In this document: positions 735 through 13,733 of the stretch, piece by piece
Layout of the letters: each line of letters starts with the position of its first letter
Numbering within the stretch: position 1 is the stretch's first letter
DNA from: Sulfurimonas sp.
GTDB lineage: Bacteria > Campylobacterota > Campylobacteria > Campylobacterales > Sulfurimonadaceae
Length of the DNA: 64,000 nucleotides
Reading direction: 5' to 3'
Assembly: GCA_041654255.1 (NCBI GenBank)
Contig: JBAZDX010000008.1
Location: 7,210-71,209 of the forward strand
Program-made: the position numbers and the translations under genes
Notes under the pieces: model-generated
The model's database searches: none
Told to the model about the DNA's origin: nothing
Seen by the model: the letters and a program-made list of their open reading frames with translations, nothing else

Positions 735-2846
735 ATGAAAAAAGGAGAAAATTTGGAACTATTTTTACTAGGCGGACATGATCTTGAAATGGTTGAAATC
801 ATAAAAATATTAGAACAAAACTGTAAAAAGTTTGAAGATAAAAAACTAAAGTGGGGTGCCAAACTGAGCGACTATAAAGAGTTTTTAAACTTTGAAGGAA
901 CTATTTATGGCATTGAGCTAGAAGAGGACATAACTTCTCCAAGCAACTATGTAGAGATTGACCATCACGGCAAAAATGACCATAAAAAATCATCACTAGA
1001 ACAGGTGGCAGAGATTTTAGGCGTCAAACTTGGTGATGACCAAAGGCTTATAGCTGCGAATGATTCTAGATACATAAGCGGTATGAAATCGCTCTGCGCA
1101 AAAGAAGAAGAGATAGATGAAATAAGAAAAAAAGATAGAGAATCTCAAGGTGTGACAAAAGAGGATGAAGAGTTAGCTTTGCAATCTTTCAATATCGCAT
1201 TTTGCGATAAAACAAATTTTATCTTTTCTAAAACCTCATATTTTAGTGCTGTAAGTGATTTGGCTTTTTATGAGTTTGATAACTACATCATCTACAACGA
1301 TTCAAAAATAGTTTTCTATGGCTACAAAAGAGAAAATATAGTTGAGTTTTTCAAAGAGCAAAATATCCAAGATGGCAGCTATTACTACGGCGGTGGTGAG
1401 TTTGGATTTGTTGGTATTAAAGATAATGTTTTAACTAAAGATGGAATCAAAAAATTGATAGACGAGTTGACAAAAATGAAAAAAGACGAGTTGTATAGTT
1501 ATCATACTTTTATGTTACCATTTAAATATAAAGGTAAAGAGAGTGTAATAGAGAATTGGTGTAAATTAGATGATGCTAAAGTTGATTATAATCAACAAGC
1601 ATACTTCCATAAATTTTTTATAAAAAGCATGTTTGATAATTGTGAAATATATGAAAATATAAAATATAAAACTTTCACACTAAAAACAAAAGATTTAAAA
1701 AAATATGGTAGTGATGAAATTAGACGACACTCAAAAATATATAAACTTGGTATTGAAAAATTATCGTTAAGAATTTTTGATGATTTTAAAGTAGGGATAC
1801 TCTCTTTTCATCTTGAAAATAAAATTTATAAAGATAAAGAAGAAATTTTAGAGATAAATGAGTATGGAAGAAGAATATACCCTGAGTATTTAGATGACGC
1901 CAATAATTGCAATTTAGTAGCAGAATATATAAAATTAGATGATATATCTGAAACTTTTAATAGCAAAAATGAGAACAATACTCCAATAATATCTCAAATT
2001 ATCACTAAGCTTATTGGAGATATTCAACCAGCAGTTGATGACAGAATGTTTACCATTAGCTACTTGAATAATCCAAAATTTGCAAATGAAGTAAAAGAAA
2101 ACTATTTATGCAATGATAAGTGGTATGAATATGTTTTTATAGATGGCGATGGCAAAACGGTTCAAAGCCAAACTATGCAGGAAGAATTAATCAAAAAAAC
2201 CACTTATGATAGATGGAAAGATTATGGAACTATGTATGGTCTAAGCAGATACTCTTTTGTGTGTTTGGCAAATAGTGATTTTCCATTACCACATATGAAA
2301 ACTATGTATTTTAGTATGTTTAGTTTGCTTTTGATGGTAAGAGCCACTTTACTTAAATTTGCAGATGATGTTAGTGAAATTGCTAAAGATATAGATACAA
2401 AAGATATATCAGGTCAAGTGAATGATACTTACAGGGATTACATAAAATTTATAAACAAATACTATTTTAGAGAGATTACAGCCAAAGATCAAGGACTTGA
2501 ACTTTATGAAAAAGCATTAGATATTTTAAAAATAGAAAGAGATGTAAAGGATTTGGATGCTGAGATAGAGGAATTGCATAGATATGTAGATTTACTAGAA
2601 GAAAAAGAAAGAACAGAATCTATGAACAAAATCTCAAAACTAGGAAGTTATCTTTTGTTACCGGCACTTATTTCAAGCTTTTTAGGGATGAATATCATTG
2701 ATTTTGGTAAATATAAAAATTGTATAGTTTCAGAAGAAGTAACAATCGCAGTTGTAATTGGCACTGTTTTCATATCTGCCTTTATCATGCCACTATTTTT
2801 AAAAAGTAAATCATACAATAAGAGTGGTAAAAAAAATGGAAACTAA
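735..2846 (+). CDS. CRISPR-associated CorA-like membrane effector fused to an N-terminal DHH/DHHA1-like (NrN-like) phosphodiesterase domain
   Basis: The N-terminal ~250 aa carry 'VEIDHHG' (DHH motif) and 'YYGGGEFGFVG' (like the DHHA1 GGGH motif). The C-terminus has 'FLGMNIIDFG' (CorA GMN signature) between two hydrophobic helices. The gene sits directly upstream of the cmr operon. Confidence 0.7.
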   Translation: MKKGENLELFLLGGHDLEMVEIIKILEQNCKKFEDKKLKWGAKLSDYKEFLNFEGTIYGIELEEDITSPSNYVEIDHHGKNDHKKSSLEQVAEILGVKLGDDQRLIAANDSRYISGMKSLCAKEEEIDEIRKKDRESQGVTKEDEELALQSFNIAFCDKTNFIFSKTSYFSAVSDLAFYEFDNYIIYNDSKIVFYGYKRENIVEFFKEQNIQDGSYYYGGGEFGFVGIKDNVLTKDGIKKLIDELTKMKKDELYSYHTFMLPFKYKGKESVIENWCKLDDAKVDYNQQAYFHKFFIKSMFDNCEIYENIKYKTFTLKTKDLKKYGSDEIRRHSKIYKLGIEKLSLRIFDDFKVGILSFHLENKIYKDKEEILEINEYGRRIYPEYLDDANNCNLVAEYIKLDDISETFNSKNENNTPIISQIITKLIGDIQPAVDDRMFTISYLNNPKFANEVKENYLCNDKWYEYVFIDGDGKTVQSQTMQEELIKKTTYDRWKDYGTMYGLSRYSFVCLANSDFPLPHMKTMYFSMFSLLLMVRATLLKFADDVSEIAKDIDTKDISGQVNDTYRDYIKFINKYYFREITAKDQGLELYEKALDILKIERDVKDLDAEIEELHRYVDLLEEKERTESMNKISKLGSYLLLPALISSFLGMNIIDFGKYKNCIVSEEVTIAVVIGTVFISAFIMPLFLKSKSYNKSGKKNGN

Positions 2847-3816
2847 GATTGAAATTTATAAAACCAAAGATGGCAAAAGTGAACTTGAGATTAATTTTGA
2901 CGGAGATTCTTTTTGGCTTCGTCAAAATCAAATAGCTGAAATTTTTGAAAAAGATAGAACAGTTATCACAAAACATATCAATAAAATTTTGAAAGATAAT
3001 GAAGTTGATGAAAAAAGCAATGTGCAAAAAATGCACATTGCAAATTCTGATAAACCCGTAATCTTTTATAGTCTTGATATTGTTTTGGCTGTAGGCTATC
3101 GAACAAATTCCCAAAAAGCGATAGATTTTAGAAAATGGGCAACATCAGTTCTTAAAAAATACCTCACTGACGGTTATGCCATAAATGAATCAAAAATCAC
3201 CCGGACGAAAGCAATCCTAAACAATCTCAAACAAACCATAGAGTTTCTCAGCACCAAACAAATCGGAGAAGAAAAAGAGATACTGTCACTGCTTCAAAAC
3301 TACACCAAAACACTCTCTCTTCTTGAGGGCTATGATAAATCAAGCATAGAGGATTTTGATGGACGAACAGCATCTTACGAACTTACATGCGATGAAGTTA
3401 AAAAAGTCATATCTCAACTAAAAATGAACCTCATAGCCAAAAAAGAGGCAAGCGAACTTTTTGGAAATGAAAAAGATGACCAGTTATTTGGAATCATCGG
3501 CAATCTTTACCAAACTTTTGGCGGAGTGGAACTCTACCCAAGTATTGAAGATAAAGCTACACATCTTCTCTATTTTATCATCAAAGACCACCCGTTCAAC
3601 GATGGGAACAAGCGAACAGCGAGCTTTTTATTTGTATATTTTCTTGATAAGTGCGACTATCTTTACAAAGAAAATGGAGAAAAAAAGATAAACGATAACG
3701 CTTTGACAACATTAACACTGCTTGTTGCATCAAGCCAACCAAAGGAGAAAGAGATTTTGATAAAACTTATAAAACATTTAATTTTTGAAGGAGGAAATAC
3801 AAGTGAGCAATTATAA
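2824..3816 (+). CDS. RhuM-family N-terminal domain fused to a Fic/Doc domain (Doc-type motif)
   Basis: The N-terminus 'FWLRQNQIAEIFEKDRTVITKHI...VGYRTNSQKAIDFRKWAT' is typical of the RhuM family. The C-terminal 'HPFNDGNKRTA' fits the Doc variant (HxFx[D/N][A/G]NKR) of the Fic motif. The gene overlaps the corA-like gene by 23 nt and cmr1 by 14 nt. Confidence 0.75.
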   Translation: MVKKMETKIEIYKTKDGKSELEINFDGDSFWLRQNQIAEIFEKDRTVITKHINKILKDNEVDEKSNVQKMHIANSDKPVIFYSLDIVLAVGYRTNSQKAIDFRKWATSVLKKYLTDGYAINESKITRTKAILNNLKQTIEFLSTKQIGEEKEILSLLQNYTKTLSLLEGYDKSSIEDFDGRTASYELTCDEVKKVISQLKMNLIAKKEASELFGNEKDDQLFGIIGNLYQTFGGVELYPSIEDKATHLLYFIIKDHPFNDGNKRTASFLFVYFLDKCDYLYKENGEKKINDNALTTLTLLVASSQPKEKEILIKLIKHLIFEGGNTSEQL

Positions 3817-4918
3817 AGTCGAGTTTACACTCAAACAACACACACCCATCATCCACTTTCAAAGTGACCAAAGCGGGGCGACGTTAAGGGCAACGGAGTT
3901 GAAACCTAAGTTGGATAGGTTTTTAATAAAGCTTGTCTTTAAAAATGATGAGTCACAATATAAAAAATATTTAATTGATAAGGAAAAAGATGCTTTAAAT
4001 TATCAAGTTAAAATAGAAGCAATAGACAATAAAATTTCGACAATTGAAACCCTTGATTATCGGGGTAAAGAACAGAGCGACCCTCTATTTTTCGGAAATA
4101 TGGGTGATGGAGAAAAGAAAAAGTTTGCTTTAGCAAAAGGGTTAAAAATAGAATTTATAAGTTTTATACCCGAAGTTACAAAAGTAATTAAAGGAAATTT
4201 TGAAGCTTTTTTAGCTCAAACTAATTTTGGAACGCGTCAAAGTAAAGGTTTTGGAAGTTTTTATCTTGATAAATCTTTTGACAAATCACTTATTCCATAT
4301 AAAGTTTATAGCTTTAGTAGCGATAAATGGAAAATTGACATTAAGCTTTTATACTCTTTTTTAAGACAGGGAATAAACTTACCAAGAGGTAAAGAGGTTT
4401 TTTATGCAAAACCTGCAATTTTTACATATGCAGTAAGTAAAAATATGACTTGGGACAAAAAAGCGATAAAGCAACATTTTTTTGCAAATGAGTTGAGAGC
4501 AGATGAGCAAAAATACGATAGCAACTCGCCTGTAAATTTTACCGGACAGAATAGTTACTTACTGAGAGACCTTTTCGGACTTTCAAGTGAACAATCATGG
4601 ATGAGTTATCGAGCAACAATCAAAAAAGAGAATAATGAGATTAGTAGATTTAAATCCCCATTGACTTTTAAAATTGTAAATAATCAAGTGTTTTTTTGGG
4701 CTGACAAGAGTGTTCAAAAAGTCCTTAATAAAACATTTAAAATTATTTCAAAAGGAAATAAGCCACTTGAATTAACTACCCCAAAAGAGTTTAATTTTGA
4801 TGATTTTTTTGAGTACACTAAAACAATAGATTTATCAAAACATATAAATCAACAGTTCCATAATACGAGCACATTTAAAGATTTAACAAGAATTCTAAAT
4901 GGTATAAAGGAGAGTTAA
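3803..4918 (+). CDS. cmr1: Type III-B RAMP protein Cmr1
   Basis: It has a RAMP N-terminus 'FTLKQHTPIIHFQ' and a G-rich loop 'FGTRQSKGFGSF', and it is first in the cmr gene order. I prefer the GTG at 3803 (GGAGG lies 8 nt upstream) over the TTG at 3785. Confidence 0.75.
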   Translation: MSNYKVEFTLKQHTPIIHFQSDQSGATLRATELKPKLDRFLIKLVFKNDESQYKKYLIDKEKDALNYQVKIEAIDNKISTIETLDYRGKEQSDPLFFGNMGDGEKKKFALAKGLKIEFISFIPEVTKVIKGNFEAFLAQTNFGTRQSKGFGSFYLDKSFDKSLIPYKVYSFSSDKWKIDIKLLYSFLRQGINLPRGKEVFYAKPAIFTYAVSKNMTWDKKAIKQHFFANELRADEQKYDSNSPVNFTGQNSYLLRDLFGLSSEQSWMSYRATIKKENNEISRFKSPLTFKIVNNQVFFWADKSVQKVLNKTFKIISKGNKPLELTTPKEFNFDDFFEYTKTIDLSKHINQQFHNTSTFKDLTRILNGIKES

Positions 4919-6261
4919 TGAACTACATAGCTTACACAATCGGACCAATCTATGACACTATTTTCTATACGCTCAAAGGCGACAACAAAACCAAAAAACT
5001 CAAAGCTGGAAGCTATTTTTTTTCACTTTTTATGAAAAAACTTCTCAACAATATCAAAGAAGATTTTGACATTTTAGTCCCATATATTGGTGCAAATGCA
5101 CTCACCCATGAGCATAAAATGGGACTATTCCATGATAGATTTATCGCTCAAAGTGATAAGTCAAAGGATGAAATAAGAGATATTTTTGTTGCTAAAGTAG
5201 AGCTTACTTTTAAAGAATTGGCAGAAATAATTCAAGATGAAACAAAAGCGTATGAGCTTATGGAGAACATGACAAACCACACTATCATAGCTTCACAAGA
5301 TGAGCTCAAAAATGTAGATGAAAACATCATTTTTGCACTCAATAAAATTCTCGATAGCAAAGAGTTACAGAGAAGTTTTACTTTTCACATGCCAAAAACA
5401 AACTGGATTCAAATGTATCAAAACAATGCAGCTCAAAAGAGCAAAGTAAAAACCATTGAAGATATGTCAGAAACATTAGGCTTCAAATATTACGCCGTAA
5501 TTACAGCAGATGGCGATAAAATGGGTGCTAAAATCAAGGAAGAAGCAACCGATAATCCTGCAAAAATTAAAGATTTATCACAAAAACTTTTTACCTTTTT
5601 TACCGCTGAAAATGACATCTATACTATTACAAATAGAGAGTTTGGCGGAGAACTTATCTATGCCGGAGGTGATGATATTTTGGCTTTTTTACCTGTAAAA
5701 TTTGAAGATAAAACATTTTTAGACTACATCAAAGTTTTAGATGAGAGGTTTAAAAAATATGTTGGAGCAGATGTAAGCCTTAGTTTCGGAGTAAACATTG
5801 CTTATTACAAATACCCACTTAGGAATGCGATAAATAGTGCTTTTGATTTGCTCCACGAAGCAAAATCGGATGCAAATATCAAAAATAGAGTAAGTCTCAA
5901 AATTACAAAACACTCAGGACAATATTTTGGTACCACTCTAGCTCTTCAAGACGCAAGATATGAAAAATATAAAAAGCTAGTAGATGGCATTTTAAACAAT
6001 GAAGTGTCACTTCCACACTCACTCCACCACTCACTCAAACGCTATGAAGAGGCTATTTTGGCAACTTATGGATACGAAGATAGCTCAGTCAAGGCAATGT
6101 TTGCAACAGTTTTTAATGATGCAAAATCCGACACAGATACAAATGGCTTAGAGATAGTAAGAGAGTATCTTGATATTTGCAGACCAAAAACAAATATTGA
6201 ATTTGATGCTATTTTTTCCGAGCTGAGTATCATCAAATTTTTACGAGGAGATAGAGAATGA
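4918..6261 (+). CDS. cas10: Cas10/Cmr2, minimal form (cyclase/Palm with GGDD; no HD domain)
   Basis: 'ITADGDKMG' and 'YAGGDDILAFLP' form the GGDD Palm motif. The gene lies between cmr1 and cmr3. It is only 447 aa, with no N-terminal HD motif and almost no cysteines. Confidence 0.8.
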   Translation: MNYIAYTIGPIYDTIFYTLKGDNKTKKLKAGSYFFSLFMKKLLNNIKEDFDILVPYIGANALTHEHKMGLFHDRFIAQSDKSKDEIRDIFVAKVELTFKELAEIIQDETKAYELMENMTNHTIIASQDELKNVDENIIFALNKILDSKELQRSFTFHMPKTNWIQMYQNNAAQKSKVKTIEDMSETLGFKYYAVITADGDKMGAKIKEEATDNPAKIKDLSQKLFTFFTAENDIYTITNREFGGELIYAGGDDILAFLPVKFEDKTFLDYIKVLDERFKKYVGADVSLSFGVNIAYYKYPLRNAINSAFDLLHEAKSDANIKNRVSLKITKHSGQYFGTTLALQDARYEKYKKLVDGILNNEVSLPHSLHHSLKRYEEAILATYGYEDSSVKAMFATVFNDAKSDTDTNGLEIVREYLDICRPKTNIEFDAIFSELSIIKFLRGDRE

Positions 6262-7409
6262 AGTATCTTTTGACATTTAAACCGCTCAAAAATTTCTTTT
6301 TTGGTAATGACAGAACTTTTAGTGATGATTATTTGGCGATTTCTGAGTATTTTCCACAAAATACACAACTTTTAGGAGCATTGCGACTCTTTATCGCGGA
6401 GCAAAATAAGCTGATGCATGTACACAAAAACGGCAAATACTCAAATGAACCGGAGAAGTTAAAAAGACTCATAGGTACGGCAAGCAGTAAAGATTTTAGC
6501 ACAAATTCAGATTTAGGAAAAATTCAAAATATTTCACAAATGTTTTTAGTTAGCAGCTCGCTTGATGATGCTTATTTTCCTACACCTTTTGATATAGAGA
6601 TAACAGAAGACAGGGTGCAATATTATGAACTTGCCCATATCGAAAATGACTATTTTTTACAAAATTACGATGTTAAAAAAGCATCTTCTCAAAAACTCGG
6701 GAATGCCAAATTTTGGAAAAATTACACTCATAAACAAGAATTATCCAAAGAACATTTTGAAGATATGAGTGAGATTTTTATAACGCATTCTCAAGTAGGA
6801 ATTGGCTTAGAAAATAAAAAAACAATCGAAGGTGCTTTTTATTCCAAAACAGATTATCAGCTGAAAAACGGCTTTTTATTTGCTTGTTTGATAGAGTTAG
6901 ATGAAAAGACTTCTTCTGTAGCTTCACAGAAGAAGTCTTTTTTTGACTTTTTATTTGGTCGTTTGATAAAGTTAAATGAAGAGATTATTTCAGATGGCAT
7001 TATCCAAATCGGGGCAGAAAATTCACTGTTTGAACTCAAAATTATACCCTATGAAAACACACAACTTACATCCCATCCAATCGTTTCACAACTTTTTACA
7101 CAACCGCAAAAAGGGGACAAAGCAGTTGCAATAAGTGATGTAATTTTACAAAGTACAGAAGAGTTTCATGCGTACTTTACCATTGTGCCATTTTACAAAA
7201 ATTTTGCAATGCTAAAATCAGAAAATGAAAGCTTCCAAGGCAAATCTAAAGAGAAAAGTTTTGCAAAATTTGAGGGTAAAACAGATCAAAAACGACTCAT
7301 TCCAACAGGAACAGTCTCTTACATCAAAGAACAAGTCATGCCACACAACCAAACATTAGGTGCCTATGCAAAGATGGGCTACAATCAATTCATAACAGCA
7401 AAAATTTAA
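6258..7409 (+). CDS. cmr3: Type III-B Cmr3
   Basis: The N-terminus 'LTFKPLKNFFFGNDRTF...LLGALR' is Cmr3-like. The start forms an ATGA overlap with cas10, and the gene is in the expected position. Confidence 0.7.
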   Translation: MKYLLTFKPLKNFFFGNDRTFSDDYLAISEYFPQNTQLLGALRLFIAEQNKLMHVHKNGKYSNEPEKLKRLIGTASSKDFSTNSDLGKIQNISQMFLVSSSLDDAYFPTPFDIEITEDRVQYYELAHIENDYFLQNYDVKKASSQKLGNAKFWKNYTHKQELSKEHFEDMSEIFITHSQVGIGLENKKTIEGAFYSKTDYQLKNGFLFACLIELDEKTSSVASQKKSFFDFLFGRLIKLNEEIISDGIIQIGAENSLFELKIIPYENTQLTSHPIVSQLFTQPQKGDKAVAISDVILQSTEEFHAYFTIVPFYKNFAMLKSENESFQGKSKEKSFAKFEGKTDQKRLIPTGTVSYIKEQVMPHNQTLGAYAKMGYNQFITAKI

Positions 7410-7420
7410 GGAGAAACACA

Positions 7421-8323
7421 ATGTACACAAACAAAGCCTATATCATCAAAACAAAAACAAATCTGCATGCAGGAAGCGGAGATACAAACTTCGGCATAGT
7501 TGACAATGAAGTCCAAAGAGACACTGTTACAAATCTTCCAGTTATAAACTCCAGTAGTCTCAAAGGTGCCGTACGCGACCATTTTAGCGATTTATTAAGC
7601 TCTCAAAACGATTTGCCACTTGGAAGTGATTTTGTAAAACCTTTTGTATTTAATACAATCTTTGGGGATGAACAAAAAAATCTTGATGATGAGGATAAAA
7701 AAACATACAGCAAACTCCCAAAACAGGGACTAGTAAAGTTTATCGATGCGAAACTTCTTTTTTTACCGCTTAGAAGTAACAAAAAGCCATTTTTTCATGT
7801 GACTTCACTTGCTACTTTACAAGAAGCCAAGAGCTTTTTAGAGAGTTTTGGTATCTCTCTTGAACTTGATGCTATCCAAACAGAAAAAAGTGTAGTCGTA
7901 GGCGCAGAAGGTGCAACGGTCGAAGATGTGGAGTGCCAACCGCTCCAAGCAGATTTTTCAAAAATGAAAAAACTCTTTGGCATAGAAAATTTAGCCATTT
8001 TTAACGATGAAGATTTTAATGATGCAGTTTCAAATCTTCCTGTAATCGCTAGAAACGCACTTGAGAATGGTAAAAGTGTCAATCTTTGGTACGAAGAAGT
8101 AGTGCCAAGAGAATCTATTTTTTACACCGTGTTTTGCTACTACAAGAACCTCGATGATAGCACTCCAGATGCAAAAGGCAAAACTGATAAGAAAAAATTT
8201 GAGATGGCATACAGACTCTTTGAAGAAAAGCTCCTCAAAGACTCTATCCAAATCGGTGCAAACGCAAGTATTGGTTACGGCATTACAAATTTTTCAAAAT
8301 TAGGAGAGAGTCATGAACAATAG
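7421..8323 (+). CDS. cmr4: Type III-B Cmr4 (backbone RAMP)
   Basis: 'LHAGSGDTNFGIVDNEVQRDTVTNLPVINSSSLKGAVRD' is the classic Cmr4/Csm3 N-terminal signature. Confidence 0.85.
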   Translation: MYTNKAYIIKTKTNLHAGSGDTNFGIVDNEVQRDTVTNLPVINSSSLKGAVRDHFSDLLSSQNDLPLGSDFVKPFVFNTIFGDEQKNLDDEDKKTYSKLPKQGLVKFIDAKLLFLPLRSNKKPFFHVTSLATLQEAKSFLESFGISLELDAIQTEKSVVVGAEGATVEDVECQPLQADFSKMKKLFGIENLAIFNDEDFNDAVSNLPVIARNALENGKSVNLWYEEVVPRESIFYTVFCYYKNLDDSTPDAKGKTDKKKFEMAYRLFEEKLLKDSIQIGANASIGYGITNFSKLGESHEQ

Positions 8324-8663
8324 AAATATAGAAAAATTAATATCACAAGCAATCAAAAAATTACATATTCTTGTAGATAAAGATGGGAAAATAGATAAAA
8401 AAAATCAAGGATATTTAGCATCTTTTGGACCAACTGTAATTTATAGTGGAATTATAAGAACAGTTGCAATTTATGGTGATAAAAGTGACTCAAACAAAAA
8501 AAGAAGAGAAATTTTAAAAATTATGTTTAGTCTGATAAATCTTGATGTTGATAGTTTTATTGCCAATGAACAATCAAGTACAAACTACAATCTCAAAAAT
8601 AAAATACTTGAAGCAAACATCGCTTGTAAATTGGCTATTCGTACTTTTGAGTTAAAGGATTAG
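8313..8663 (+). CDS. cmr5: Type III-B small subunit Cmr5
   Basis: It is a 116 aa helical-looking protein between cmr4 and cmr6. The call rests on size and position only. Confidence 0.6.
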   Translation: MNNRNIEKLISQAIKKLHILVDKDGKIDKKNQGYLASFGPTVIYSGIIRTVAIYGDKSDSNKKRREILKIMFSLINLDVDSFIANEQSSTNYNLKNKILEANIACKLAIRTFELKD

Positions 8664-8665
8664 AG

Positions 8666-9598
8666 ATGGCTTTTTTTATGCTATTTAATGTTCCAAAAGA
8701 ATTTGAATACAATCAATTTAAAAAAGAGTTATCTAATTATGGGACAATTATTTCTTTCAAATTGAATGATGATAAGAACAATAAAGATTCTAAATTTGGG
8801 CAACTTGATTATAGTGTTATAGTTAACAAAAATGATTTATTAGATTTTTTAAAATCTCATAAAATAAAAGCCATTGAAAAAGAATCAAAGCAAAATAATG
8901 AGACTAATCAATCTCAACCAATCCAAAAACCATACGAATCCAAATCGCCACAACCAAACAACGCAACGACTGCAACCATCGCAAACCCATCTTTTCATTT
9001 TTACAAAGACAAAGCTTATGGAAAAGGAATTGAGAATTTTCAACTTGTACAAAATTATCAAAATATTTTTGAAATAGATGGAGCAGAGACTTTTACACTT
9101 ACTACAATTTATCCAGGACTTTTGGTAGGAAGTGGTTATAACCATCCAAAGTTAAAAGAGAGTAATGAAGATTTTCAGCTAGGTTTCTTTTTTGACCACA
9201 CTACAGGGCTTCCTATCATCAGCGGAAGCAGTATAAAAGGGCTTTTAAAAAGTGTATGTGAAAAAACAGACTTTATGCAAGATGTGTATGGCAAAATAGT
9301 TAGTTTAGATATCTTTGAAGACGGCGAAACGATCTTTTACGATGCCTATATTATCGAAACAAAAAACAAAGACAAAAAGATCTTTGGAAGCGACTATATT
9401 ACAAGTCACTACAGCAACGAAGAAAATGGTATGTTCAAAGAGCCAAATCCAGTCAAGTTTCTAAAAGTTTTACCAGAAGTTACTTTCAAGTTTCAGTTTA
9501 AGGCTTCAAAAGAGTATGTGGAACTTTTCAAAGCCATCATCTTAGATTTCGGTTTGGGTGCAAAAACTAATGTTGGTTATGGTAAATTTATAGAGTAA
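8666..9598 (+). CDS. cmr6: Type III-B Cmr6 with a ~105 aa N-terminal extension
   Basis: The RAMP motifs 'GLPIISGSSIKGLLKS' and the terminal G-rich loop 'GAKTNVGYGKF' are present. The first ~105 aa are extra and end in a Q/N/P-rich linker. Confidence 0.8.
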   Translation: MAFFMLFNVPKEFEYNQFKKELSNYGTIISFKLNDDKNNKDSKFGQLDYSVIVNKNDLLDFLKSHKIKAIEKESKQNNETNQSQPIQKPYESKSPQPNNATTATIANPSFHFYKDKAYGKGIENFQLVQNYQNIFEIDGAETFTLTTIYPGLLVGSGYNHPKLKESNEDFQLGFFFDHTTGLPIISGSSIKGLLKSVCEKTDFMQDVYGKIVSLDIFEDGETIFYDAYIIETKNKDKKIFGSDYITSHYSNEENGMFKEPNPVKFLKVLPEVTFKFQFKASKEYVELFKAIILDFGLGAKTNVGYGKFIE

Positions 9599-9612: not shown

Positions 9613-9834
9613 ATGGAATGGTACATATACATCATCTATGGCTTTGTAGCTCTAGTAATTATCAAAGCTATTTTTGGAAATAATGGTTATTCAGATGATT
9701 GTGATGATATGTTTGACCCAGACTGCTATGATTACTGGCTGTATGGACCGGGTTCTTGGGGAGAAGATGATAAGCCGTATGACGACACATGGAACAGTTC
9801 TGATGATTTATACAAAGATGACGATAAGTATTGA
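9613..9834 (+). CDS. Small membrane-anchored, highly acidic/aromatic protein (hypothetical)
   Basis: It has one N-terminal hydrophobic helix 'IYIIYGFVALVIIKAIF' followed by a D/Y/W-rich tail. It is packed tightly between cmr6 and RT-cas1 and overlaps the RT-cas1 start region. Confidence 0.45.
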   Translation: MEWYIYIIYGFVALVIIKAIFGNNGYSDDCDDMFDPDCYDYWLYGPGSWGEDDKPYDDTWNSSDDLYKDDDKY

Positions 9835-12068
9835 ACATGTACACAGTAGCACTCGAACACATTTTCACAAAAGAGAACTTTAAAAACGCTTTTAGCGAAA
9901 TCTCTTCAACGTCCAATGGGCTTGATGATATCTCTTATGCAGAGTTTAAAAGCGACTTTTCTAAAAATATAGACGGGCTTATAGACTTTATCCTCAAAGG
10001 CACATTTACACCTGAACCGCTAAAAAAGATAGAGATAGACAAAGACGGTAGCGATGAAAAACGCCCCATCGCGCTAAGCGCCATCAAAGACAAGCTTATA
10101 CAAAAAGTGCTTTACAAAGAGCTAAATCCATACTTCGACAAAGAGTTTTCAGACAAATCTTATGCTTACAGACCGGACAAATCAACCCTAAAAGCCATAA
10201 ACCGTGTCACACAGTTTTTAAACGAAAAAAATCTCATAGTCGTAAAAACAGATATTGACAACTTTTTTGAGTCCATTGACCACGATGTTTTGCTTGAGAC
10301 ACTCAGCAATCATATCTCGGACAAACGCATCATACGGCTTATTTCGCTTTTTATGCAAACGGGTGGATTTAAAAATTTTAACTACGCAGACCATGACCAA
10401 GGAGTACATCAAGGCGACATTCTCTCTCCGCTTCTCTCAAACATCTATCTCGATGTTATGGACAAATACCTAGAAACGCATGACGTGCCGTTTGTCCGTT
10501 ACGCAGATGACTTTGTGATGTTATTTAAAAAAGAGAGTGACGCAAAAGAGAGACTTGAGAAGCTAAAAACATATCTTTCATCTATAAACTTAAAGCTCGA
10601 AGAGACCAAAACTTACATATCACATATCGGGGATGGTTTTACATTTTTAGGAGTTCGCTTTGAGGGAAGAGGGCGAAATGTTGAGAACGAAAGACTTCAA
10701 AAAAGCATCTCAAAAATCCATACATTAGCCAAAGACAAATCGGGCTTTATAAAGTACATAAAAGAGCTAAACATCTACCTTTTTGCACTTCAAAACTACT
10801 ACTTAAAGATAGTTACGAAAAATTCTACGCAGCACCAGCTTCTACAAAACGCACTTATAGAGAGCATTGCACACAAAGTCCACCTCTCAAAGGAGTCAAA
10901 AGCCGTCACGACAAAAAAAGAGTTCAAGATACTCTTGGCGCAGATAGAATTCTCCATCCTTTTTGAAGATGAACAGCTAGATGACAAAAAAGAGCTTATC
11001 ATCGCCAAAGGTTATGAAAAGTATCTTGCAAACAAATCCTACAAAGACACATCCTCAAAGATAGATAAAAAGAAAAACCAATACGCAAAAAAGTTCGCAA
11101 ACGACTCGACACTTCACATAAACACCCACGGGCTTATGCTTGGCATCTCAAAAAACAAGTTTGTCATCAAAGAGTACGGCAAGGTAAAGAGCAGTTGTCC
11201 GTTTGACAAAGTAACACGCATAATCTTTGAGGGCAAAGGCTTTAGTATAAGCAGCGATGTTTTAAAAAAGTGTGCGGACAACGCCATTACTGTTGATTTT
11301 ATAGACAGCGATGCCATGCCTTACGCTTCGCTCATCACCTACCGCTCTAGCATATCTCAAAATGTTCACAAACAAGCGATGGTTTTAAACACCTCAAAAC
11401 AGCTGGAACTCGCATGTGGATTTATAAAAGGCAAAGCAAAAAACCAGATAAACTACCTAAAATATCTCAACAAATACCACAACCTCCTAGACAAGCAGAT
11501 AGACTCCATGGAGCTAAACTACATCAAGATAAAGAGTGCCTCCGATGTAGCGCAACTCATGGGCATAGAGGGGAGCATCTCTGCGTCGTACTGGAGTGCC
11601 GTGAAACTCATTTTAGAAGTTCCTTTTGAGGGTCGCATAACGCATGGAGCAAAAGACATAGTAAACTCTTCGCTCAACTATGCTTATGCCATTTTATACG
11701 GCAAAGTGCAACACTCGCTTGTTCATGCGGGGCTTAGTCTTAGCATCTCGTTTTTACATGCACTTGACGATAAAAAGCCGACACTCACTTTTGACATGAT
11801 AGAGGAGTTTAGAACTTTCATAGTTGACAGAACCGTCATAGCCATGTTAAACAAAGATGAACCCATAAAGCTTGGCAATGATGGACTACTGACAAAACCG
11901 AGCCGCCAGCTCATAGCCAAAAATATCAAAGAGAAGCTAGGTTCTTACACCATGTGGAAAAAAGAGTCCAGAAAGCTTGAAAACATCATACAAACACAAT
12001 GTTTCAACCTAGCCAAAACCGTAAACGGTGAGAGTGCAAAGTACAGAGCATTCATTGGAAAATACTAA
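9831..12068 (+). CDS. cas1: Reverse transcriptase-Cas1 fusion (no Cas6 domain)
   Basis: The RT motifs 'RPIALSAIKDKLIQKVL' and 'RYADDFVMLF' (YADD) are in the N-terminal half. The Cas1-like C-terminal half has 'GIEGSISASYW', 'NSSLNYAYAILYG' and 'FDMIEEFR'. The ATG at 9837 is an alternative start. Confidence 0.9.
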   Translation: MNMYTVALEHIFTKENFKNAFSEISSTSNGLDDISYAEFKSDFSKNIDGLIDFILKGTFTPEPLKKIEIDKDGSDEKRPIALSAIKDKLIQKVLYKELNPYFDKEFSDKSYAYRPDKSTLKAINRVTQFLNEKNLIVVKTDIDNFFESIDHDVLLETLSNHISDKRIIRLISLFMQTGGFKNFNYADHDQGVHQGDILSPLLSNIYLDVMDKYLETHDVPFVRYADDFVMLFKKESDAKERLEKLKTYLSSINLKLEETKTYISHIGDGFTFLGVRFEGRGRNVENERLQKSISKIHTLAKDKSGFIKYIKELNIYLFALQNYYLKIVTKNSTQHQLLQNALIESIAHKVHLSKESKAVTTKKEFKILLAQIEFSILFEDEQLDDKKELIIAKGYEKYLANKSYKDTSSKIDKKKNQYAKKFANDSTLHINTHGLMLGISKNKFVIKEYGKVKSSCPFDKVTRIIFEGKGFSISSDVLKKCADNAITVDFIDSDAMPYASLITYRSSISQNVHKQAMVLNTSKQLELACGFIKGKAKNQINYLKYLNKYHNLLDKQIDSMELNYIKIKSASDVAQLMGIEGSISASYWSAVKLILEVPFEGRITHGAKDIVNSSLNYAYAILYGKVQHSLVHAGLSLSISFLHALDDKKPTLTFDMIEEFRTFIVDRTVIAMLNKDEPIKLGNDGLLTKPSRQLIAKNIKEKLGSYTMWKKESRKLENIIQTQCFNLAKTVNGESAKYRAFIGKY

Positions 12069-12350
12069 ATGTTTTATCTCATAGCGTACGACATCACAAA
12101 CGACAAACGCCGAAAAAAGCTCTCAGACCTTTTGGAGAAGTACGGCACAAGAGTAAACTACTCCGTCTTTGAAGTAGAGATAAACGAGACCAAACTTGAA
12201 CATCTCGTTTATGAGATAGAACTCCAAAAACTCATCAACAAAAAGTATGACTCGCTACGTTTCTACCATGTCTGCCAAAACTGCACTCCGAAGTGTTTCG
12301 AACTCTCAAACTCCCCAGATCCATTCGCTCCAAAAGAGCTTTTTATATAA
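12069..12350 (+). CDS. cas2: Cas2
   Basis: 'MFYLIAYDITNDKRRKKL...YGTRVNYSVFEVEI' is the canonical Cas2 N-terminus. The gene starts immediately after the RT-cas1 stop codon. Confidence 0.9.
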   Translation: MFYLIAYDITNDKRRKKLSDLLEKYGTRVNYSVFEVEINETKLEHLVYEIELQKLINKKYDSLRFYHVCQNCTPKCFELSNSPDPFAPKELFI

Positions 12351-12756
12351 AAAACAATTCTCGAACTTTTTTTTCTCAAAAACAGCCTATTTTGGCTAAA
12401 ATCTTATTTTAATAGTTAGCAAAACCGGCATATCCGTTTTTATAGTTTTTAGATTTGCGAACTTTTAGTTCTGTTTAATTTTTAAACTCCCTATTATAGG
12501 TGCTTTGTAAACTTATAAAAGATTTAAAGTTAGAAAATCTCAACTTTTAGAAAAATATAGAGTAGGTTTGCGAACTTTTTTTAAGTGCGAAAACCCTAAA
12601 AATAGGCATTATTTGAAATTTTACTGTCAAAAGCATGGAGTTGCATTTTGAAATATGGCATAGTTTTGCGAACTTTTTATGCAAAACACGCTCACTGTGG
12701 GAAAATATAAGTTTTAAGTGGATACCATACTGTTCTACATAGCCGTAATCTTGGCT
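12351..12756 (+). promoter_or_regulatory. CRISPR leader with a reiterated TTTGCGAACTTTT box
   Basis: This is an AT-rich non-coding stretch between cas2 and the first repeat. The 13-nt box occurs at 12454, 12567 and 12665, with a degenerate copy TTCTCGAACTTTT at 12358. Confidence 0.7.
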
Positions 12757-13733
12757 ATTTCGCCCCGAATTTTCGGGGCAGTTATTTTGAGACTCCTTTT
12801 GACAAAAGAGCTTAGGCTCAATTGTAAATTTCGCCCCGAATTTTCGGGGCAGTTATTTTGAGACTTGTCTGACTTTTTGTCAGTATATTTGTTATAGGTA
12901 TTTCGCCCCGAATTTTCGGGGCAGTTATTTTGAGACCACCTTAGATCAACTGTTGAAAAACGGCTGAATAAATTTCGCCCCGAATTTTCGGGGCAGTTAT
13001 TTTGAGACTCTCCTATGTTTAATTTCACTTTCCTCATTCTATTTCGCCCCGAATTTTCGGGGCAGTTATTTTGAGACACGTGACTTTTAATCGAGCTTAG
13101 AGTTTGATTAAATTTCGCCCCGAATTTTCGGGGCAGTTATTTTGAGACGTAATAATCAATACCGTCTATCTCACCATCTCTTTTGGATTTCGCCCCGAAT
13201 TTTCGGGGCAGTTATTTTGAGACAAGAACGAAGCGCTCTCCATACGCTCCGTTTAACTTTATTTCGCCCCGAATTTTCGGGGCAGTTATTTTGAGACCAT
13301 CGTAGCCCTTGTTCATTAACGAAGGAATTAGTATTTCGCCCCGAATTTTCGGGGCAGTTATTTTGAGACTTTCGCTAAAACAGATCGAGCTGTTAAAGAC
13401 TTTTATTTCGCCCCGAATTTTCGGGGCAGTTATTTTGAGACATGTTTAAATACCATTGAGCTACTATAAAATATGCCATTTCATTTCGCCCCGAATTTTC
13501 GGGGCAGTTATTTTGAGACACGAACTGCAGAAGTTTCCTTCTTACTTCCAAAGATTTCGCCCCGAATTTTCGGGGCAGTTATTTTGAGACAAGACAAGGC
13601 TCCATCAAAAATCTTCTTAGCTTGATTTCGCCCCGAATTTTCGGGGCAGTTATTTTGAGACCTTTCCAATATTTCTCTCTCTGTAAACAACATACTATTT
13701 CGCCCCGAATTTTCGGGGCAGTTATTCTTTTAT
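12757..13733 (+). CRISPR. CRISPR array with 14 repeats (the last is degenerate) and 13 spacers
   Basis: The 37-nt repeat is ATTTCGCCCCGAATTTTCGGGGCAGTTATTTTGAGAC, with an internal hairpin GCCCCGAA/TTCGGGGC. Repeat starts are 12757, 12828, 12900, 12972, 13041, 13112, 13187, 13261, 13333, 13405, 13483, 13554, 13625 and 13697. Spacers are 32-41 nt. The last repeat diverges after ...CAGTTATT. The GAGAC 3' end and the cas2-proximal leader indicate + strand transcription. Confidence 0.97.

Follow-up and report, generated by a model that had tools for sequence, protein, structure and literature searches.

Toxin genes of the Doc type recur as passengers in type III-B and III-D CRISPR-Cas operons, in which they occupy at least four different positions and appear to supply the ribosome-binding site of the next cas gene. 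Here, we describe one such gene, RhuM-Doc, in a 64,000-nucleotide (nt) stretch of Sulfurimonas sp. DNA (contig JBAZDX010000008.1; hereafter the window, whose coordinates are used throughout), where it lies at 2836-3816 on the + strand between nrn-corA and cmr1 of a type III-B locus. We consider it moderately probable that RhuM-Doc is an autonomous, translationally coupled and mobile hitchhiker, a toxin or defence module lodged in a variable slot of its host operon. An earlier interpretation of the bare DNA (the sequence-only reading) had put it forward as a possible effector under Cas10 control, a claim that is probably wrong and whose correction saves effort, while in reconstitutions of such systems, including those of the SAM-AMP/CorA type, RhuM-Doc may affect phenotypes.

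The proposed module would consist of three parts, namely an exchangeable, winged-helix-like RhuM N-terminus, a helical linker and a Doc-type Fic domain. Having no promoter of its own, it would live in other operons through tight translational coupling; in the window it would fill a variable accessory slot between nrn-corA and cmr1, be transcribed with both, and provide in its final codons the ribosome-binding site of cmr1. By homology to Doc of phage P1, the Doc domain may phosphorylate EF-Tu, or another target, and so stop translation. Control would be intrinsic, exerted by the putative DNA-binding N-terminal module and the linker, possibly with the help of a palindrome embedded in the gene, a Cas10 second messenger being an unlikely trigger. 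A seat in a defence operon would give co-expression and co-transfer, and abortive infection may thereby gain a second, independent layer.

The sequence-only reading had placed the gene in an open reading frame (ORF) of 330 amino acids (aa) at 2824-3816 (+). That frame is real, its opening GTG 2824 being an alternative start, and an alignment of 57 homologues, all of which open with M-x-N/T-K-I-E-I/L-Y/F, sets the start at ATG 2836 and the length at 326 aa. As the stop codon of nrn-corA (TAA) occupies 2844-2846, the overlap with corA comes to 11 nt and not to the 23 nt first given. For cmr1, the longest ORF runs from TTG 3785, and an in-frame GTG at 3803 is preceded by a GGAGG Shine-Dalgarno sequence at 3790-3794; signal and start together (3790-3805, +) lie inside the final codons of RhuM-Doc (…FEGGNTSEQL). 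Since the PADLOC Cmr1 model begins to align at residue 9 of the long ORF, and the same GTG is used in 6 of 6 loci with the order corA|RhuM-Doc|cmr1, cmr1 most likely starts at GTG 3803, which upholds the 14-nt overlap that had been read there. The 3' junction common to these six loci reads …HLIF(E/V)GG… with GGAGG and GTG; empty sites have ATG. With overlaps of 11 nt and 14 nt, and the GGAGG of cmr1 inside RhuM-Doc, the tight coupling to both neighbours stands as originally described. A scan of the region found no + strand terminator-like site between corA and cmr1, promoter-like matches in the same interval were at chance level in a promoter scan, and an Rfam scan of 2600-4000 returned nothing meaningful; this arrangement is consistent with co-transcription of corA, RhuM-Doc and cmr1. 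No small ORF or phd-like antitoxin gene adjoins RhuM-Doc, its neighbours being the overlapping nrn-corA and cmr1.

The protein is confirmed as a Doc-type Fic protein with a RhuM-type N-terminus, an intact member of the RhuM/Fic/DOC family. The RhuM-like N-terminus already suspected is borne out by a Pfam RhuM match at aa 63-129 (8.6e-17, 61.7 bits against a gathering score of 33.7), which spans positions 9-75 of the 252 in the profile, so that only the N-terminal part of RhuM is present. Pfam Fic matches aa 205-270 (5.6e-12, 46.8 bits against a cut-off of 24), while the NCBIfam model TIGR01550 (DOC_P1) stays below its curated cut-off (35.9 vs 38.65 bits, E 7e-9), a near miss that fits a divergent, fused Doc domain. 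Over its full length, the protein matches PDC-S23 of PADLOC (1.7e-114, aa 1-316 on a 327-position profile), one of the PDC systems, which are candidate phage-defence systems; the literature search turned up no validation of PDC-S23.

The active-site motif, HPFNDGNKRTA (aa 252-262, 3589-3621, +, read from the sequence), is indeed the Lys-containing Doc variant: it conforms to the Doc pattern HxFx(D/N)(A/G)NKR, in which Lys replaces the second Gly of HxFx(D/E)GNGRxxR. In alignments, 75 homologues, with identities as low as 35%, all share H-P-F-x-D-G-N-K-R (aa 252-260) without change, which argues for purifying selection on activity. A search of PDB profiles matched the Doc-family protein 9vzc (8e-5). 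Of two AlphaFold2 models, the first, from 58 close homologues, had a mean predicted local distance difference test score (pLDDT) of 58 and gave an uninformative fold search, and the second, from 75 more diverse sequences, had a mean of 69.5. The Doc domain is modelled with pLDDT 82-92 over aa 180-290, and Foldseek matched it to the P1 Doc entries 3dd7, 3k33 and 3kh2 with probability 1.00 and a target-normalised template-modelling score of 0.66-0.69. Pfam Fic, the PDB profile and Foldseek thus agree on a Doc-type Fic domain at aa ~180-318 (3373-3789, +), as the sequence-only reading had asked to be checked.

The N-terminal RhuM module (aa 1-95, 2836-3120, +), delimited by homologue identities, trees and the model, is a helix-helix-beta-hairpin with pLDDT 76-90 over its ~95 residues and probably a winged helix, its fold matches to MarR-type winged-helix regulators being weak. 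Pfam, NCBIfam, PADLOC and fold searches detected no CARF, SAVED, CorA cytoplasmic or other messenger-sensor domain, and inspection by eye of the conserved linker gave no match to the Fic inhibitory-helix motif (S/T)xxxE(G/N). The peptide 'LSLLEGYDKSSIEDF' may loosely resemble the Doc-binding C-terminus of Phd. E. coli DinD, considered as a distant RhuM relative, was rejected, having no detectable similarity and no palindrome.

Proteins of this kind have been met before in other defence loci. RhuM and RhuM-Doc genes in restriction-modification (R-M) operons were described in 2013 by Anantharaman et al. (PMC3710099), and RhuM is enriched beside invertible hsdS genes (PMC9881135); the NCBI name of the family is 'virulence protein RhuM/Fic/DOC family protein'. 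The RhuM/Fic/DOC proteins of R-M operons (PMC3710099; PDC-S23) have the same domain architecture, as judged by the full-length profile match, and likewise sit, co-directional and tightly coupled, in a defence operon, whereas the host here is a type III-B locus with NrN-CorA and, in relatives, a III-D locus. In B. fragilis type II-C loci, RhuM-domain ORFs were reported in 2017 between cas1 and cas9 (PMC5704556), likewise a RhuM-family gene inserted between cas genes, but in another CRISPR type and described as RhuM-domain or DNA-binding, with no Doc domain reported. Like P1 Doc of the Phd-Doc pair, the window protein has the Fic fold and the HxFx(D/N)(A/G)NKR motif; unlike it, it carries about 180 extra N-terminal residues in its 326 aa and no adjacent phd-like antitoxin gene. 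The main text of the 2018 preprint by Shmakov on CRISPR-linked genes mentions neither Fic nor DOC nor RhuM. The claim that RhuM/Doc proteins are not among the described type III families agrees with the literature that we found; in R-M operons and a type II-C locus the family is already known.

The family is large and widely spread. Each of two protein searches returned at least ~8,000 clusters, and a scan of species genomes gave 378 relatives at 50-87% identity in Campylobacterota, Patescibacteria, Ignavibacteria, Nitrospinota and others. Plasmids of Legionella, Aeromonas, Vibrio and Pseudomonas carry relatives at ~39% identity, in two cases beside Tn3 transposases, and family members are also present in viral contigs. 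On the Legionella and Aeromonas plasmids (4968-6002 of L176 and 4998-5975 of L177, L-numbers denoting fetched homologous loci), the gene abuts a Tn3-family transposase with a 0-nt gap or a parM fragment with an 8-nt overlap, which suggests that it is carried there as a transposon passenger. Neighbours of the relatives are very diverse, in Patescibacteria being diverse housekeeping genes, and are mostly joined on the same strand by ATGA overlaps or gaps of a few nt. ORFs of the fetched loci were called with a longest-ORF picker and annotated with phmmer from a small set of reference proteins, which means that outside Campylobacterota divergent cas genes may have gone unnoticed.

Among the close relatives whose contexts we tabulated (at least ~60% identity, Campylobacterota), type III-D loci carry the gene between cas7 and csx19 (L003, L010, L016, L017, L021, L032 and L210), between csx19 and cas7 (L019) or between csx23 and cas6 (L001, identical to L008, which holds the closest homologue at 87%); the III-D genes bear the PADLOC names Cas10d, Cas7_IIId, Cas5_IIId, Csx19, Csx20, Csx23 and Csx1. 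Together with the III-B loci, RhuM-Doc lies inside at least 15 type III loci, six of them III-B at corA|cmr1 and at least nine III-D at three positions. Its enrichment in type III operons, and in R-M operons, is real, and for type III it is undescribed in the literature that we found. The effectors of these loci differ, being Card1, Csx1 and Csx23 in III-D and NrN-CorA in III-B, and with CARF-type effectors in one group and CorA in the other, RhuM-Doc is not tied to one effector type.

These contexts bear directly on the proposal of the sequence-only reading that RhuM-Doc serves type III systems as an ancillary effector or regulator, with Doc switched on by Cas10 signalling or target RNA as a second abortive-infection arm. 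Like Csm6/Csx1, Card1, NucC and CorA, it is encoded within type III loci and, as the gene layout suggests, probably co-transcribed with cas genes; its recurrence in III-B and III-D operons, at 15 or more loci and far above chance, its translational coupling to effector and complex genes, and its long retention at one III-D position are what one would expect of such a component. Unlike those effectors, it has no CARF, SAVED or CorA-type ligand-binding domain and does not appear to be conserved with cas10. Because a messenger-sensing domain was not found, the host systems differ (CorA/NrN of the SAM-AMP type, PMC10600005, vs Card1/Csx1/Csx23), the distribution is patchy, with the gene missing from the closest corA orthologues and from 80 of 80 loci of a metagenome scan, and members of the same clade sit in nuo, neuBC and R-M operons, we regard a Cas10-linked arm or regulator as very unlikely. 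The survey of related loci that had been called for therefore cuts both ways, confirming recurrence in type III operons and suggesting that CorA/Cmr loci do not carry RhuM-Doc as a conserved component.

Relatives at 70-81% identity sit in nuoF|nuoG, neuB|neuC, hsdS|hsdR and elsewhere. The nuo insertions (nuoF|nuoG; 10001-10984 of L004-L006 and 2-883 of L011) are 76-81% identical, lie on Sulfurimonas-like contigs and have overlapping start and stop codons. Surface-glycan operons carry the gene between neuB and the UDP-GlcNAc 2-epimerase gene neuC (L013, and L026 and L031 by similarity of the upstream gene only) or after the UDP-glucose dehydrogenase gene (L028). Further copies lie between hsdS and hsdR of a type I R-M system (L020), upstream of a type IIG R-M enzyme (L025), between DUF2779 and WYL genes (L009) and between genes for a Crp-family regulator and a hemerythrin (L012).

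Embedding in essential operons such as nuo, the patchy distribution, the compositional difference from the flanks described below and the Tn3 association on plasmids could all be accounted for by a purely selfish addiction or hitchhiker gene with no defence function, kept because loss of a self-restrained toxin is harmful or because clean excision is rare. We hold this to be unlikely, since the catalytic motif and the entire C-terminal 230 aa are under strong purifying selection across phyla, the gene is enriched in defence loci, and its diversifying, exchangeable N-terminal module resembles the sensor modules of defence proteins. A guard or back-up toxin, held inactive by products of the host operon (the Cmr/Csm complex or a type I R-M enzyme) and freed when a phage inhibits them, has a precedent in PrrC, the anticodon nuclease of the EcoprrI type Ic R-M operon, which is similarly a toxin gene within a defence operon and a possible second line of defence. 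A preference for defence operons (type III, type I and IIG R-M, DUF2779/WYL neighbourhoods) would follow from such a role, and a multi-level defence role has been proposed for RhuM/Doc in R-M loci (PMC3710099). PrrC is, however, unrelated in fold and chemistry; RhuM-Doc also occurs in non-defence operons, with close relatives in nuo and sialic-acid-type operons and among Patescibacteria housekeeping genes, and a different partner would be needed in each context, so the guard arrangement seems to us improbable.

The corA|cmr1 junction itself behaves as a variable slot. RhuM-Doc occupies it exactly in the window and in L091, L172, L173, L174 and L209; the CorA proteins of L091 and L172-L174, loci found by a targeted comparison of the RhuM-Doc and CorA match lists, are 47-59% identical to that of the window. 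In the closest corA orthologues, those of L088/L089 (82%) and L092 (66%), RhuM-Doc is absent and corA leads directly to cmr1, and none of the 80 CorA loci of the metagenome scan contains it, the 80-locus sets comprising the most similar sequences rather than a random sample. Among 64 readable corA-to-cmr1 junctions, 42 are direct, 17 hold other genes and five hold RhuM-Doc; as four of these five came from the targeted look-up, the real share can be no more than a few per cent. The other occupants are an FGase-family hydrolase, small membrane proteins and Cas6, making the slot a place to look for accessory functions.

L096/L097 have the cmr module nearest to that of the window (Cmr1 96% and Cas10 95% aa identity). 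Their corA is only 49% identical to the window's and an FGase-family gene fills the slot; at the nucleotide level, L096 becomes homologous to the window from 3815, within the RhuM-Doc stop codon (3814-3816), and continues at ~86-90% identity. A near-identical cmr module beside so different a corA and slot gene indicates that the upstream effector module, including RhuM-Doc, was exchanged as a block. The N-formylglutamate amidohydrolase-family gene (Pfam FGase, 1e-45), found in the slot of L093 (12469-13200), L096 (11960-12685) and L097, may encode an accessory enzyme of CorA-type III-B systems that has escaped recognition. In CorA loci further removed from the window's (L127, L129, L135, L137, L145, L147, L153, L158-L160 and L166), the slot holds small predicted membrane proteins of 103-174 aa, sometimes followed by cas6.

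Across all contexts, identity in the C-terminal 230 aa of RhuM-Doc is 65-88%. The first ~95 aa come in distinct types, which share either 69-86% or 28-44% identity with the window protein; the break in identity lies near a conserved FRKWAT motif, ~80 nt downstream of the palindrome, and trees of the N-terminal and C-terminal parts disagree (neighbour-joining trees from small alignments, computed without support values). We infer from these comparisons that the N-terminal module is swapped as a unit between homologues. Several proteins (L012, L016, L017, L091 and others) are 80-88% identical to the window protein in the C-terminal part and only 28-44% in the N-terminal ~95 aa.

In the tree of the C-terminal part, which includes five corA|cmr1 copies and not that of L209, four of the five cluster, together with one interloper, and in the CorA tree RhuM-Doc carriers fall in three clades; the pattern fits a mainly single origin at the corA|cmr1 junction, followed by losses and exchanges. 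At the III-D cas7|csx19 position, the copies have diverged about as much as their cas neighbours, which suggests long residence there. A foreign origin of RhuM-Doc fits its composition, with a G+C content of 0.36-0.37 and a GC skew near 0, unlike the flanks at 0.27-0.31 and about +0.2. Target-site duplications or terminal repeats, sought by an unrestricted comparison of 5' with 3' junctions, were rejected (mean 7.04 vs null 6.92). In-register similarity upstream of the two start codons was slightly raised (9.12 vs 7.95, permutation p 0.005), which we attribute to related III-D loci and a shared architecture of Shine-Dalgarno sequence, spacer and ATG, and we claim no duplication.

Within the exchangeable N-terminal module lies a palindrome, which in the window reads GCAATGTGCA-AAAAA-TGCACATTGC (3017-3041, codons 61-69), forms a perfect stem and, as single-stranded DNA, has a folding energy of -11.9 kcal/mol (z-score -4.6). 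Across the family, palindromes of 10-17 bp lie at nt ~180-235 of the gene (codons ~61-69), at the same relative position in L001-L087, L091, L172-L178, L209 and L210. At this position, a perfect stem extends over at least 8 bp in 72, and over at least 10 bp in 56, of 85 distinct RhuM-Doc genes; once up to three mismatches are tolerated, the stem is present in all 85. Control windows placed elsewhere in these genes reach the two lengths in 16 and 2 of 506 cases, respectively, and synonymous recoding of the same peptides in 5.9% and 1.2% of trials, differences that point to a constraint which acts on the nucleic acid and is not confined to the protein.

The stems themselves vary, 27 different ones being found, and they covary. 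In a gap-free alignment of 67 distinct 35-mers, changes occur on both sides in 12 of 12 pairs, compensatory cells number 232, a value that none of 500 shuffles attains (85±9), and the covariation score is 0.68 compared with 0.17 in shuffles and 0.07-0.22 in slid controls, with windows centred on the best palindrome of each gene, a choice to be borne in mind when reading these values. Stem mismatches comprise 6 G·T, 8 A·C and 21 others, so that G·T wobble is not in excess. The loop consists of A/T alone in every case, and the same stem may carry A5 or T5 (or A3 or T3), which amounts to the same double-stranded DNA site in opposite orientation; both this and the missing wobble excess favour a DNA-level element over an mRNA hairpin. 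From these patterns we favour a DNA-level element, which might be a symmetric protein-binding site, a cruciform or the outcome of arm-to-arm conversion by template switching. A palindrome with varied stems at one codon position in every member examined offers a testable handle on the regulation or mobility of the family, and neither it nor the swapping of the N-terminal module is mentioned in the literature that we found on RhuM or RhuM-Doc.

The palindrome is also present in the plasmid homologues at 39% identity, with an identical stem in a GC-rich Pseudomonas plasmid, and viral contigs gave 28 exact matches, ~12 inside RhuM N-domain ORFs and ~11 with no RhuM gene nearby. In five viral loci (L181, L188, L194, L199 and L202), GCAATGTGCA-N5-TGCACATTGC follows a Doc-less RhuM gene, one nt past its stop codon, and has an integrase downstream of it; the L188 copy is at 9646-9670, and the Doc-less RhuM gene there, the one such gene checked, has its own, different internal palindrome, AGTGGTTGTTTCCA…. 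Just downstream in L181 and L194 is a second palindrome of another type. The palindrome is single-copy in the window, and the flanks of 72 loci (~1 Mb) hold no second copy.

Universal presence at one position, DNA-level behaviour, travel with the N-terminal module and recurrence directly after the stop codon of Doc-less RhuM genes could be explained if the protein were mainly a DNA-binding regulator, its winged-helix module binding the palindrome in its own gene to modulate read-through to cmr1-6 and Doc serving as a regulatory appendage. Against this, no second site copy lies in the ~1 Mb of flanks, and full conservation of the catalytic motif argues that enzymatic activity matters; we consider it highly improbable. 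Somewhat less doubtful, and still speculative, is a self-contained, DNA-sensing abortive-infection toxin whose N-terminal module would read the palindrome in its own gene, every variant of the module having a site of its own, and by binding or releasing it would gate the Doc kinase, read-through of the host operon, or both; type III, R-M and surface-glycan operons would thus gain a guard layer that is portable. Were it true, Campylobacterota type III systems would routinely carry an extra arm independent of Cas10 signalling.

Several points weigh against our explanation of RhuM-Doc as a mobile hitchhiker module. The copy at cas7|csx19 was apparently kept while the cas genes diverged to 65-80% identity, a retention that suggests more than passive hitchhiking. 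Eight of the 13 tabulated relatives with readable context, and 7-8 of the 25 Campylobacterota loci in the species-genome scan, have a type III context; so strong a tie to type III loci in Campylobacterota leaves room for a type III-specific role. The helical linker (aa 113-171), to which part of the control is ascribed, is modelled poorly (pLDDT below 50), no antitoxin gene adjoins that would keep a Doc toxin silent, and the literature searched contains no experimental study of any RhuM-Doc protein.

The host operon is a CRISPR-Cas locus of type III-B with NrN-CorA (the SAM-AMP kind), which gene order and family scans place at 1-13.7 kb of the window; the same architecture has been shown for a locus of Aliarcobacter butzleri (PMC10600005). 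The homologues that bear names indicate a place in Campylobacterota, close to Sulfurimonas and Arcobacter. All of its genes lie on the + strand. At its head is a putative regulator with WYL and WCX domains (56-703; Pfam WCX 8e-13, WYL 1.8e-6), whose ORF may extend further upstream than this start, followed by nrn-corA (735-2846), a fusion of a DHH phosphodiesterase with a CorA-like membrane effector (PADLOC CorA 2e-106, DHH_CorA 9.5e-64). Beyond RhuM-Doc come cmr1 (3803-4918; PADLOC Cmr1 6.6e-78) and a short cas10/cmr2 of 447 aa (4918-6261; Pfam Cas10-Cmr2_palm2 6e-28, NCBIfam Cmr2), in which GGDD is present and no HD-domain family was matched in Pfam and NCBIfam scans. The genes cmr3, cmr4, cmr5 and cmr6 (6258-9598; Pfam, NCBIfam) are followed by an RT-cas1 fusion and cas2 (9831-12350; Pfam RVT_1 and Cas_Cas1, with cas2 assigned by homology to Cas2 of L003 and L088).

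Between cmr6 and RT-cas1 lies a 73-aa ORF (9613-9834) with no match in an NCBIfam scan, the only scan applied to it, and L093 has a 92-aa ORF at a similar place. An in-frame 17-bp inverted repeat, GAAAAGACTTCTTCTGT…ACAGAAGAAGTCTTTTT, with a T run after it, occupies 6903-6942 (+) in the interior of cmr3; the alignment of the window with L096 breaks there, with 38 nt of the window unaligned and a 37-nt overlap in the subject, which suggests a small palindromic insertion or duplication. The CRISPR array (12756-13662, +) comprises ~13 copies of a 37-nt repeat at a period of ~72 nt, and these repeats are 100% identical to those of L096.

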